Shown here piece by piece: positions 1,351 to 6,237 of a DNA stretch of 20,000 nucleotides (the first letter of the stretch is position 1; every line of letters begins with the position of its first letter). The DNA is from Ancylonema sp. (taxonomy: Eukaryota). The position numbers and the translations under genes are program-made. Under the pieces are notes generated by a model. The model had not been told where the DNA came from and ran no database searches. It worked only from the letters and a program-made list of their open reading frames with translations. The stretch lies in contig JBFLGF010000113.1 in assembly GCA_050230475.1 (NCBI GenBank), positions 52,098 to 72,097 of the forward strand, given 5' to 3'.

Positions 1351-1459
1351 GGCACTAGGGGTGCTGCAGCTGGCAGCATCAAAAAAATGATGCTGTCAGT
1401 TGGGGCTGAGACTAAACCCTCACTACCTGACCAGCATAATTGCTGCGTAGGGAAGTGCC
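1351..1459 (+). promoter_or_regulatory. TPP riboswitch aptamer 1 (THIC 3' UTR/intron)
   Basis: P1 GGCACT(1351-56)/AGTGCC(1454-59); P2 AGGG(1357-60)/CCCT(1417-20); 15-bp P3 CAGCTGGCAGCATCA/TGATGCTGTCAGTTG; J3/2 CTGAGA(1406-11); P4-P5 CCTGAC-CAGC-ATAATT-GCTG-CGTAGGGA. Lies downstream of THIC, where plant TPP riboswitches are known to occur. Confidence 0.96.
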
Positions 1460-1504
1460 TTTTCTTTTTTTTTTTCTTTTTTCTTTTCTTTCTTTATCAT
1501 CATG

Positions 1505-1608
1505 GCACTAGGGGTGCTTCAGCTGGTAGCAGCTGCTAGCCGCTATCAGTTGCGGCTGAGACTATACCCTCACTACCTGACCAGCATAATAGCTGCGTAG
1601 GGAAGTGC
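1505..1608 (+). promoter_or_regulatory. TPP riboswitch aptamer 2 (tandem copy)
   Basis: P1 GCACT/AGTGC; P2 AGGG/CCCT; P3 CAGCTGGTAGC/GCTATCAGTTG (a C-G pair of copy 1 is T-A here, and the apical loop differs); CTGAGA; CCTGAC-CAGC-ATAATA-GCTG-CGTAGGGA. Confidence 0.96.
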
Positions 1609-1637
1609 ATGTTTTATTGATCCATTCCTTTGTTATC

Positions 1638-1723
1638 ACACTAGGGGTGCTTAACTGATTGGCGCCTTCATGGCTGTGATCAGTTGCGGCTGAGACAGGA
1701 GGTTCAGTAGGTAGTGTAAGTGT
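1638..1723 (+). promoter_or_regulatory. Third, partial TPP aptamer-like unit (P1, 5' strand of P2, P3 and CTGAGA kept; 3' strand of P2 and P4/P5 absent)
   Basis: ACACTAGGGGTGC...TAACTGATT/GATCAGTTG stem...CGGCTGAGA, then CAGGAGGTTCAGTAGGTAGTGTAAGTGT in place of CCCTCACTACCTGACCAGC. The terminal AAGTGT can close P1 with ACACT. Confidence 0.8.
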
Positions 1724-2067: not shown

Positions 2068-5000
2068 CATAGCTGGGTCCCGGACCGTCCGGGGATCTTC
2101 GGACGCGTCCGAGACCGGTCCGGGCCCGGACGCGTTCCGGACGCGTCCCGTACCCGGACGTCACACCCAAAATTTGAACTCCGTATGCGGCTAAGTATTC
2201 CCGGACGCCTGAACTGGCCGGCGCATTGCGAGTAGTATGCAACACAAGACAGGTTATTCCTCGGCAAGCGACGCGGCTGTAACGTGATGCGGTGAACACT
2301 TGAGGGGCATAGTGGTGTATGATGTTGCAGTGTGTAAAGCTTTCAGAAGTGTATATTGGTTAGTCTTGGAAAAACAATTCGGACAGAGTGGATGCTGCCT
2401 ACACGGCGACTATCAAGAATAATTTTACTATAGTAACATGCGGCGATGGAAAGGAAAACGGCAATGCTCAGTGGAACTGCAATTTTAGTGCGAAGAGCAT
2501 TAGTGGTACCGCAACCAGGCTACCATTGCATCTTACTCGACGGAGATCGGACGAAAACCACTGCTACAAATTTCCAGACGTTGAACGAAAGAAGATGAAT
2601 AACTCGACTTTGTAGCAAACAACAACGGGGAAGGTACCAGTTTGTAGAATCACGCAACGGATACTCAACAAGGCGAGAACCTCCTCGGCTTCCACGACAC
2701 CTGAAACCTTCAAGCGACTTGGAAAGGGAGACGTTGACGAGAAGGTGGAGCTAGTGTTCATCGCGAATGGAATGCCCTTCAAAATAGTGGAGTAAGTATG
2801 ATTTGATCGGGAATGATCTAAGTGCTATTTTGCTTCCGTTGTCATCAGTGATATTCTGCGAATCTTTAAAGCCGTAGAATAGGTTTGACTGTAGTATATC
2901 TGCTACAGTCAAACCTATTCACTCCATTGGGTCTGCAGATCACCAGAGTGGAAGGAAATGGCCAGGGCGATGCAGACCCAAGGGGGCACATACGTTTCAC
3001 CCAGTAGGAAAACTCTCGCGGAAAGCTCCTCAAGAAAGCGCGGCGAAAGACAGCTGAAGCTTCAACAAACGTGGGAGGAAGAGGGCATAAAGAAGACAGG
3101 TTTTGTGCTTCAGTCGGACGGATACGACGACAACAGCAAGCGACCTCTCATCAACACCCTGCTGTCTACACCAAGAGGCTCAAAATTCCATTCAGCTAAG
3201 GACGCCGAAGCTACCTGATGTCTCACATTTCAGATTGACTTATCATTGGTATTCAGTGTGCCTTCGCAATATGATGGAGATTTTGTGTCAAGGTTTTATT
3301 CTCATCTGGTCATTCCGTAGTATGTTTCTTATTACAAGCCATACTATACTTGTAGGTGCTGAGAAGAACGCAGAATACCTAGCCGCCCATTGGCTGGAGA
3401 CGATTGAGGAGTATGGACCCAACAATATCACTGCCTGCACAGACGGCGCCCCTAAAAATGTCAAGGCGGCAGCGATGGTCAAAGATGTGTAAGTATCCAC
3501 TCTCTAATCATGACCATATCTGATACGTGATTAGACTTGCTTGTAGGCACCCACATTTTCCCTGCATGCTCTGCTTTGCGCACTCCAGCACCCTTTACTC
3601 CTGAGCAGCTCGAAAAAGTAGTCAGACATGTGACCTTTTGTTGGACATGCTTTTAGGTACCCACATATCTTCTGGGTGCACTGCACTACCACGCCCTCGA
3701 TTTACTTCTGGAGGACATGGGGAAAATTCTGTTCCGAAACAACATTGAAGCCGGCAGGAGGATAATCAAGTTCCACCGAGGACATCAGCGATCGCGAGCG
3801 TGGGTGCGAGAGTTCTCTCCAAACAAACAACTCAGGTCACCAAGTAAGTTCTCTGAAATTATTGTTCAGCTATCTATCCTGCTCCCATCACCAAGCACAA
3901 GTCGCATAAACTTTGTATATGTGTCTTCCAAATGCTACACGCTTTTACACGGAGTTCCTGGCGGCCGAGCGACTTTTGGATCTGAGAGCGGTGTTGCGAA
4001 GCATTCAGAAAGACACTCGCTTCATTATGTGTTACCTGCAAATCGGGGAGAGGCGGGCTGGGTACAGTTGATGGTGGAGGAGAATGAGGATTTTTTTGCC
4101 CAGCTTCAGCTGATTGTGAACCTCTTTGGCCCGATTGTTGACCTGATGAAGATGACTGACAAGGACGTGGCCACTATGGGGAAGGTATGACTCCTTCAAT
4201 TCAATGATATCAATGATTGTCTTACTTGAGTGTTTTGTCATCAATCCCTTATTTTATATTATTATATGTATTTAAAATCATGAATTTTGCCCTTTTATTG
4301 TACCCTTACTCACAAGTGTACAGTCGTGCCCAAAGATTGATCACACGAGTCAACACTGTCGAGTCCCCTCATTTCACCCCCGATGTGAGGACTGCCGTGA
4401 ACAAAGTTGTGAAATCACGCGTGGCGAAACTCATCAGCCCACTCCACGCAGCTGCGTATGCCCTAGATCCTGAGTTTCAGGGTGAGAAGAAATCTTCAAA
4501 GGTGAGAGCGCATTTCGAGGAAGTTTGCGTGACCATCTTAACACCGGAAGAATGTTCGCGAGCCAACCTCGGGCTCACTGCGTTCAACAACAAGTTGGGT
4601 GCTTTTGGGAGGTCGGGTGTACTTGACATGGCCGACAAGATGCCAGCACACCAATGGTGGCTAGAGTGCGGAGGCGATTGGTCTGAGTTGCAGAGGGTGG
4701 CAGTGCGGATTCTGGCCATGGTGTCGGGCTCCGGGGCTTGTGAGCGCAATTGGCGGGTCTTCGACTTCATCAAGAGCAAGAAGAGGAACCGCCTTACTCC
4801 AAAACGAGCCATTCTACGTCTTTCACAACAACAAGTTGCTCAAGAAGCTCGAGGAAGACCTGAAGAAAGAGGCTGAAGGAGGTTTGGGGAGATTTGTGGC
4901 ATGGGGTGAAGCGAGGTTGGTGGGTGAAGAGTGGGAAGATGACGATGAGGAGGAGGAGAGGGAGGAAGAGGTGGACAAGGAGGAGGAGGTGGACGAGGAG

Positions 5001-6012
5001 GAGGAGATGGAGGTGGGGGAGGAGGGGGAGTGGGAGGAGGAGTCGGCGGAGGAGGAGGAAGAAGAAGATTGCGATAGGAGGAGGTTGGAGAGGTGAGGGT
5101 CACGGATATGGAGGGTAAGAGGGGAGGGATGGGAGGATCTGGAAGCGGGATGGGACGAAGAGGACGGGAGACGGACATGGAAGAAGATGAAGAGACATCG
5201 GGAGGTGATGATGATCTCGAAGACGAGGACGAGCACGAGGACGAGCACGAGGACGAGGCTGGGACAATGCGAGAAGAGATGCGTACTACGCTCTATATAA
5301 TAGCCAATAGTGTATGGTATATTAGAAACCCACTACATGTGTGTCCACTGAAGGTATGATAAGATGTATACGGGCGCGGTGCGTTGTACATGGGGATTGT
5401 ACCTTGAGAAATTTTATCTCAATTGTGTTTGTATCGTGAACGAGGCCGTTTGATGTATAAAATGACTAAAAGACTTGAAGAAGCTGAACGCCATCTCAAA
5501 TACAGTAGTAGTTCACCGAAAGTATGATGTAGAACTCTTTACGAAACTCTCTTGGTGATTAGTGTGCATGCAATTTTTGCACTGGTATGAAATGCGTATG
5601 CGTCTCATACAGTTGAAGATGTCCCAAACCGGTTACACATCGTTAAATACGCAAGTCGCAACTTACAACATACATTGAGCGTGGAAGAATAATTTTTACT
5701 CCAACGTCACGTGTGAAAAGATGACGTCACATGCATATGTGTATGTCTGTGTACATGATTCGTGTTGTAGTCCAAATGTAATTACAAATCACATTCCTCA
5801 GGAATTAAAAAATGTTGAGACATTATTGATTGCATATTTGTAGTTACAATTGTACCGCTATGTTTGCTACAACTGAAAAAAAAAGTTTGTTTTTTATAAA
5901 AGTTTCCATGGGTCCCGGACCGTCCGGGGATCTCCGGCCGCGTTCCGGATGCGTCCGGGGCCGGACGAGTCCCGGACGCGTCCGGGGTTCTCGCGTCCGG
6001 GACCCAACTATG
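2068..6012 (+). mobile_element. hAT-superfamily DNA transposon, 3945 bp, probably defective
   Basis: 18-bp TIRs: CATAGCTGGGTCCCGGAC (2068-2085) and GTCCGGGACCCAACTATG (5995-6012), 1 mismatch. Perfect 8-bp TSD TCGAGAAG (2060-2067, 6013-6020). GC-rich subterminal CCGGAC/GGACGCGTCC repeats. Internal transposase remnants. Confidence 0.95.
2388..5096 (+). pseudogene. Intron-containing hAT transposase pseudogene (BED-finger remnant, DUF659-type core, C-terminal dimerisation domain, acidic tail)
   Basis: Fragments: QWNCNFSAK...TATRL..HL (BED-like), FIANGMPF, PSRKTL, LQSDGYDD..KRPLIN, CTDGA..N, YPHIFWVHC..HALDLLLEDMGK (frameshift between 3658 and 3717), PLHAAAYALDP, WW...G..WSELQRVAVRILA...S.ACERNW..F.FIKSKKRNRL. 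Stop at 2613-2615 and a further frameshift near 4810. Exon boundaries are approximate. Confidence 0.88.
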
Positions 6013-6237
6013 TCGAGAAGGGCATAATTGCGGATACCGTAAGTTCATTTACGTCAAGTGCCAATTCCACGCAAAGATGACTTAGGATTAACGTCTAATT
6101 TTATTCGTTTGACATGATGAACGATAGAGATTGGGAGTACGAGACTTTGCATCGCAATAAAAAATATAAGAAGCTTTACACCACTCAGGGAAGAAGATGA
6201 CTTACAATGGGACATGTATATAGGCATGCCTTCCCAC

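Follow-up and report, generated by a model that had tools for sequence, protein, structure and literature searches.

To our knowledge, TPP riboswitches are the sole riboswitch class common in eukaryotes, and in the tested eukaryotic cases that we know of, as far as the literature covered here extends, one aptamer acts on one splicing decision. The THIC gene of land plants carries a TPP riboswitch in its 3′ untranslated region (3′UTR), where one aptamer is described (PMC3665906, PMC10226581, PMC3597705). In plants and fungi, the P4–P5 element covers a 5′ splice site when TPP is low (PMC3597705); in Arabidopsis THIC, the retained intron bears the 3′-end signal and yields a short, stable mRNA (PMC10226581, PMC3665906). 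Two TPP aptamers have been reported in the 5′UTR of NMT1 in two Saprolegnia species, a computational case ascribed to duplication, with the mechanism left open by its authors (PMC5882874). By the coordinates in the supplement of that paper, the aptamers lie at 43204–43327 and 43347–43476 in S. diclina and at 46446–46573 and 46630–46727 in S. parasitica, 19 and 56 nt apart. In bacteria, tandem TPP switches account for less than 1% of TPP UTRs and each aptamer has its own platform (PMC2258182); double and triple TPP arrays are found upstream of thiC in Bacillota (PMC12452182). The gene-flanking case of Micromonas CCMP1545 has riboswitches in both UTRs of genes (PMC4260697).

The locus described here lies in a 20-kb stretch of DNA, the whole of which is called the window. 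The aptamer class and its place in the gene are both known, and the variation lies in the doubling, for which one eukaryotic precedent, Saprolegnia, has been described by computation. The land-plant switch shares with it the gene, the aptamer class, the 3′UTR position, a 3′UTR intron and a candidate P4–P5 complement over GU sites; the difference is that one aptamer is described in land plants, whereas here there are two intact ones and a half unit, in an alga, and the regulated site is a candidate. Saprolegnia NMT1 is alike in having two similar TPP aptamers, tens of nucleotides apart, in a eukaryotic pyrimidine-branch thiamine gene present as two related copies, but it is an oomycete 5′UTR, whereas the present array is in a streptophyte-type THIC 3′UTR, with transcript evidence and a third half unit. 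The original prediction was aware of no eukaryotic tandem TPP array; Saprolegnia supplies one, in another gene, UTR and lineage.

The bacterial arrays (tenA, thiC and thiE operons of Bacillota; PMC2258182, PMC12452182) also have two or three aptamers in series at a thiamine gene, but there each aptamer has its own platform and controls transcription independently, whereas a splicing or 3′-end output is proposed here. The spacer between the two intact aptamers (1460–1503) is predicted to be unpaired and without a hairpin, unlike a bacterial-type terminator for each aptamer. The glycine riboswitch resembles the locus in its adjacent aptamers, maybe with one common platform (PMC2258182), but has another ligand and fold, and the coupling considered here is a predicted swap of secondary structure. 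In Micromonas, the two TPP aptamers of a green-algal gene are at opposite gene ends and not adjacent. The available extracts of PMC11521341, PMC11683625 and PMC5473149 do not mention an adjacent TPP pair. Within the Creative Commons papers and preprints searched, as far as their text was accessible, we found no plant or green-algal THIC whose 3′UTR has TPP aptamers side by side, and in the same literature no study of TPP riboswitches in the algal relatives of land plants.

A transcribed, conserved pair in a THIC 3′UTR offers a direct route to probing multi-aptamer logic on eukaryotic splicing. It raises the question of whether tandem copies shift a threshold, sharpen the response or are merely redundant. 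It also suggests that the land-plant THIC 3′UTR switch predates land plants and that its copy number varied in their algal relatives.

The THIC gene and its host lineage

By translation, the gene in the window is the C-terminal part of THIC, encoded on the forward strand by two exons:

187–339, + strand: second-to-last coding exon of THIC, with the CSMCGPKFC motif inside (translation; best named match Mesotaenium THIC, 84% identity; joint to the next exon spliced in contigs of runs X3 and X5)
340–574, + strand: last coding intron, GT..AG, 235 nt (X3 joint 336/572 ‘cut +3’)
575–712, + strand: last coding exon, stop codon TAG at 710–712 (translation; alignment to THIC C-termini)

The gene is identified through its homology to full THIC proteins; Pfam, applied to the two short exons alone, did not recognize them. 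The peptide has a two-residue gap common to Mesotaenium and Closterium THIC and absent from the land-plant and two other algal rows of the alignment. The tree (90 columns) places the window THIC with Mesotaenium and Closterium, with support values of 84/93, below the starred level. The host is likely, if not firmly, a zygnematophyte-like streptophyte alga.

Two complete aptamers and a half unit

Rfam model RF00059 (gathering score 54.3 bits) matches two full TPP aptamers, at 1347–1470 (57.7 bits) and 1500–1620 (61.3 bits), both over model positions 1–105. These are the only Rfam matches in the window. The array consists of the following elements:

1351–1459, + strand: TPP aptamer 1, P1 of 6 bp, P3 of 3+15 bp (Rfam; fold z −6.5; pairing check)
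1460–1503, + strand: pyrimidine spacer, 44 nt, preceding the AG at 1510–1511 at the P1/P2 junction of aptamer 2
1504–1609, + strand: TPP aptamer 2, P1 of 5 bp, P3 of 3+11 bp (Rfam; pairing check; X3 contig 1505–1746 with 0 differences)
1638–1696, + strand: 5′ half of a third aptamer (P1 and P2 5′ strands, P3 and CUGAGA; without P4, P5 and the closing strands)

In units 1 and 2, every pair of P1–P5 is standard, and the conserved J3/2, J4/5 and J5/4 motifs are aligned. Compared with shuffled sequences, the fold energy of unit 1 is exceptional; that of unit 2 (z −1.6) is without clear excess on energy alone. Both aptamers very probably bind TPP. Outside P3, the two units differ at just 2 of 69 nucleotides. 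In the lower P3 stem there are 4 differences in 24 nucleotides, among them a two-sided change from C–G to U–A (Fisher p 0.037 for P3 stem against the rest of the unit), and the P3 tips are wholly different. The P4–P5 strand is identical in both.

The two complete aptamers, near-identical cores and diverged but still paired P3 of the original prediction are thus borne out, as is a tandem arrangement in a eukaryotic THIC 3′UTR, given the two Rfam matches, the THIC exons and a diverged THIC that also has a pair (see below). Its measurements needed small corrections: the array starts 639 nt and ends 984 nt past the THIC stop, the interval between the intact units is 44 nt, and the end lies at 1696 and not at 1723. 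The spacers were described as unrelated, which is roughly right (alignment of the 44-nt spacer with the 28-nt spacer between units 2 and 3 is no better than shuffles, p 0.09), except that both end in a similar pyrimidine-rich stretch.

Unit 3 agrees with unit 2 at all 22 nt of the two 5′ core blocks. Its P3 has 7–8 bp with two changes from G–U to A–U, and the unit ends after CUGAGAC. Two full RF00059 matches and a partial one had been expected; the full ones were obtained, and relaxing the search to E values of 10 still gave no match to unit 3. The 3′ half that this unit lacks is absent from both strands of the window at up to two mismatches. On its sequence, unit 3 is a decayed third aptamer.

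The uncommon-looking J2/4 sequence of the array is also found in two bacterial TPP aptamers, one of them upstream of a thiamine transporter; a metagenome scan with the lineage-type aptamer pattern gave two loci, both bacterial and both with single aptamers. A bacterial TPP-like aptamer with P3 nearly absent was noted upstream of a ThiT-type thiamine transporter (PF09515; L002, 3001–3080, minus strand), below the Rfam gathering score. The P4/J4-5 regions of the two aptamers (1427–1431 and 1577–1581) resemble branch points in sequence, lying 81 and 64 nt ahead of the AG in the unit that follows, and ligand binding would bury them.

Transcripts and a second, diverged THIC

Five sequencing runs contain the stretch, and contigs of four were compared. 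Run X3, labelled DNA by guess, skips 340–574 and 738–992, both GT..AG; we infer that it is RNA-like because introns are removed. In run X5, the matches are to coding exons only, with many differences.

738–992, + strand: 3′UTR intron 1, GT..AG, 255 nt, junction 25 nt past the stop (one X3 contig, joint 733/989 ‘cut +4’, depth 15.6)

The X3 contigs of this THIC copy cover 184–336 (depth 33.7), 989–1223 joined to the last exon (depth 15.6) and 1505–1746 (depth 4.5), depths that cannot rank transcript parts, levels or ends. They have no cover over 1224–1504, which includes unit 1, and this lack carries no weight. The array lies within the transcribed THIC 3′UTR, as indicated by contig 1505–1746 together with a contig of a diverged THIC that runs from the coding exons through both aptamers. 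Record 18 of X3 has intron 1 removed, is unspliced at 1023 and 1032 and ends at 1223; record 19 reads unspliced through the AG at 1644, with 139 nt upstream included. Splicing at 1023, 1032, 1321 or any aptamer AG is absent from the contigs examined.

Within intron 1, positions 787–804 could be an 18-nt micro-exon, with a pyrimidine-rich AG at 785–786 and GTAAGA at 805; it is absent from the one spliced contig. Its 3′ splice site (783–791) is a perfect 9-nt complement to the P2/J2-4 strand of the aptamers.

The diverged THIC (X3 record 16) is a single contig of 1860 nt with the coding intron removed. Its coding sequence differs from that of the window at 15/150 and 19/134 nucleotides (34/284 together), and among the differences listed, 11 of 11 fall at third codon positions. 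At 80%, nothing in its UTR can be aligned apart from two aptamer matches, at record positions 208–317 and 75–180; some 30 nt separate them, and the first lies about 350 nt past the stop. The second aptamer has 10 differences and one gap, of which the listed changes (five substitutions and one insertion) are in the P3 tip; the first has 0 differences listed, yet an X3 loose end suggests a differing P3. Both aptamers are complete on this abundant contig, so a long form that reads through them unspliced exists for the diverged THIC, a point against a splicing switch of the type proposed below. Record 16 is either a paralogue or the gene of a co-occurring organism. The aptamer pair is likely kept by selection, since two aptamer matches persist where the surrounding UTR has diverged; the comparison is of two THIC copies in one sample. 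Selection on both copies had originally been argued from divergence within the window; it is supported, more by the diverged THIC than by that divergence.

A loose-end consensus in X3 has a P3-like hairpin and, after it, a J3/2 motif altered at one base; it may be a decayed aptamer.

Support for the locus in DNA contigs

In run X1, DNA contigs cover 1–1453 (1 difference, depth 5.9) and 1431–1880 (0 differences, depth 5.68); in run X2, they cover 1–1453 (depth 108.7) and 1499–1880 (depth 91.1). X1 and X2 may be the assembly's own source reads, and units 1 and 2 are nowhere complete together on one DNA contig. Both points leave some room for an assembly artefact, for example two alleles or paralogues joined head to tail. 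Against this, the second X1 contig reaches without differences from the end of unit 1 across the spacer and both following units; its 23-nt overlap with the first contig includes the unit-1-specific base 1441; and depth is even across the locus. Since the diverged THIC also carries two aptamers, on one contig, the pair is not an assembly error; we consider an artefact extremely improbable, as the original prediction had argued.

The DNA runs contain about four THIC versions at uneven depths. Depth sums over 1505–1543 (8.53 twice in X1, 107.3 twice in X2) suggest one more contig, placed twice on unit 2, and so hint weakly at a third locus carrying two aptamer-like copies.

A candidate splicing platform

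By analogy with known systems, the array probably regulates processing of the 3′UTR. Somewhat less securely, we favour a feedback OFF switch of the land-plant type, with two aptamers acting together on THIC 3′UTR splicing and 3′-end choice; this type is inferred because of the aptamer family and its position, and the exact splice site is a lead. The candidate elements are:

1023–1041, + strand: candidate expression platform, a 16-bp complement (1024–1041) to the J2/4-P4-P5 5′ strand of either aptamer, overlapping the GU at 1023 and 1032 (−22 kcal/mol)
1243–1280, + strand: candidate 3′ splice site with branch-point-like motif, pyrimidine tract and CAG (sequence motif)

At low TPP, the P4–P5 strand of either aptamer would mask a 5′ splice site just past intron 1, most likely 1023 or 1032, giving a short, stable 3′UTR. 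At high TPP, the aptamers would fold and free this site, a second UTR intron would be removed, and a long, unstable mRNA would result. Because either copy could mask the site, its release would need both aptamers loaded. The choice of 1023/1032 as the regulated site is tentative and, in our judgement, somewhat less likely than not to be right.

The GU sites at 1023 and 1032 are 31 and 40 nt into the exon that follows intron 1. The segment 1024–1041 is the best UTR complement to the P4–P5 strand with all three probes used (whole-UTR shuffle p 0.027). With a probe chosen after seeing the duplex, none of 60 shuffles and one of 56 window segments does as well; with a wider probe, 4/60 shuffles and 15/56 segments are as good, and with the whole P4–P5 probe it is ordinary (20/60 and 26/56). 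In global folds, the helix is formed at 0–62%, depending on the boundaries, and nearly always with aptamer 2. Forcing the aptamers to fold does not make the GU sites more open.

An intron running from either GU to the 3′ site at 1280 would measure about 250 nt, and its exon junction, at 1022 or 1031, would fall 55 or 64 nt past the stop, at or past the limit for nonsense-mediated decay, which is about 50–55 nt. Record 18, with intron 1 out and its end at 1223, is as expected of the short retained-intron form. Intron 1 and the 1024–1041 complement are only suggestive of a land-plant-type switch.

Other UTR complements to the aptamers were considered as platforms (730–753 and 769–792, −18.9 each; 1330–1353, −17.2; 1701–1724, −16.5) and rejected: none stands out (local shuffle p 0.14 for 1330–1353 and 0.51 for 1701–1724), and the 5′ site of the coding intron is equally good (−18.1).

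Dose response and coupling of the two aptamers

In a toy model, two independent aptamers on one shared splice site give a Hill coefficient of 1.0 with the midpoint about twofold higher, and two separate platforms give 1.19. A second independent aptamer on a shared site would therefore raise the threshold about twofold without sharpening the response unless the two are coupled. The steeper response originally expected from tandem copies does not follow from their number; for a shared site, coupling alone raises the Hill coefficient. A response steeper than that of a single aptamer is, in our judgement, rather doubtful.

A possible source of coupling is visible in folding predictions, which involve the swapped P1 strands and an upstream element:

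1345–1352, + strand: 8-nt complement to the P2 3′ strand and J2/4 of aptamer 1 (1417–1424), predicted to form a ligand-free helix (folding; local shuffle p 0.14)

In the predicted ligand-free ensemble with both units, 1454–1459 pairs with 1504–1509 (p 0.87–0.97) and 1345–1352 with 1417–1424 (p 0.89–0.99); through the P1 swap and the upstream helix, neither native P1 forms. Unit 1 alone is predicted to populate its native fold about half of the time. Folding one aptamer by constraint takes more than half the energy needed for both, which corresponds to a predicted coupling of 1.1–3.1 kcal/mol over seven regions and, in the toy model, to Hill coefficients of 1.04–1.75; the predictions assume equilibrium and leave out tertiary structure, proteins and co-transcriptional folding. 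The coupling falls to 0.6 ± 0.65 kcal/mol when the upstream 51 nt are shuffled (n=25) and is little changed, at 2.2 ± 1.2 kcal/mol, when the spacer is shuffled (n=25).

These predictions allow a cooperative two-aptamer splicing switch, acting via swapped P1 in algal relatives of land plants, to be proposed, a reading that we regard as unlikely. Without TPP, the P1 strands would be swapped, the 3′ one of aptamer 1 pairing with the 5′ one of aptamer 2, and the upstream 8-mer would open P2 of aptamer 1, so that neither pocket is formed. The first TPP would break the swap and ease binding of the second, giving a steep release (Hill about 1.2–1.7) of the shared splice site. If true, cooperativity would arise in a eukaryote from tandem duplication itself, without tertiary contact, and synthetic biology in plants and algae would gain a useful part in a natural splicing switch with a steep response.

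Alternative readings of the array

The array could instead be a product of local duplication and decay, in which one aptamer regulates and the extras are tolerated or kept alike by gene conversion. The loss of the 3′ half of unit 3 fits such turnover, and the near-identity of the cores of units 1 and 2 could also reflect gene conversion. The spacer of the diverged THIC (about 30 nt) fits the 28-nt spacer between units 2 and 3 better than the 44-nt one, so the intact pairs of the two THICs may not be the same two units; and an independent second aptamer would gain only the twofold shift described above. Turnover accounts less well for two THIC copies with unalignable UTRs that each have two aptamer matches, and for P3 changes that keep pairing (one two-sided between units 1 and 2, two from G–U to A–U in unit 3). 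We judge it improbable.

There is also a small chance that each aptamer has a separate platform, as a multi-step switch nearer to the Chlamydomonas THIC mechanism. Aptamer 1 would then lie inside an intron opening at 1321, P1 of aptamer 2 would hide or free the AG at 1510–1511, and the half unit would be a spare 3′ splice site (1643–1644) that its own P1 cannot close:

1321–1326, + strand: candidate 5′ splice site GTAAGT, 30 nt before aptamer 1 (sequence motif)

Besides this motif, pyrimidine-rich tracts precede the AGs at 1511 (0.70) and 1644 (0.75), with branch-point-like motifs, and introns of 191 or 324 nt would resemble those of 235 and 255 nt in the gene; concealment of a 3′ splice site by the 5′ strand of P1 is the mechanism described in Chlamydomonas (PMC3597705). 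However, record 19 is unspliced through the AG at 1644, the diverged THIC contig retains the bases 5′ of both aptamer AGs, and the predicted openness of 1321 barely moves with aptamer folding (0.35–0.54). The land-plant-type switch with a shared site remains the reading that we prefer.

Circularly permuted pockets, in which the 3′ half of one unit would combine with the 5′ half of the next and give unit 3 a role, are not favoured: all pairs are possible, yet the fold is 4.5 kcal/mol worse than the normal register (−95.8 against −100.3).

Sequence downstream of the array

Directly after unit 3, 1697–1720 contains an interrupted complement to the J2/4-P4 strand, with 8 perfect nucleotides at 1709–1716 overlapping a GTAAGT at 1716; it is no better than local shuffles (p 0.51). 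Between the array and a transposon, a 79-nt unit is tandemly duplicated at 1851–2008, exact to one base.

The transposon, at 2068–6012, is a hAT-type DNA element with terminal inverted repeats and an 8-bp target-site duplication (2060–2067 and 6013–6020). Severing of the 3′ half of unit 3 by this insertion was considered and rejected, as the element begins 372 nt past the unit and the rest of the window, on its far side, lacks the half. The element contains intron-split pieces of DUF659 and the hAT dimerisation domain, below the Pfam cut-offs, and its end is present at very high copy in the DNA runs.
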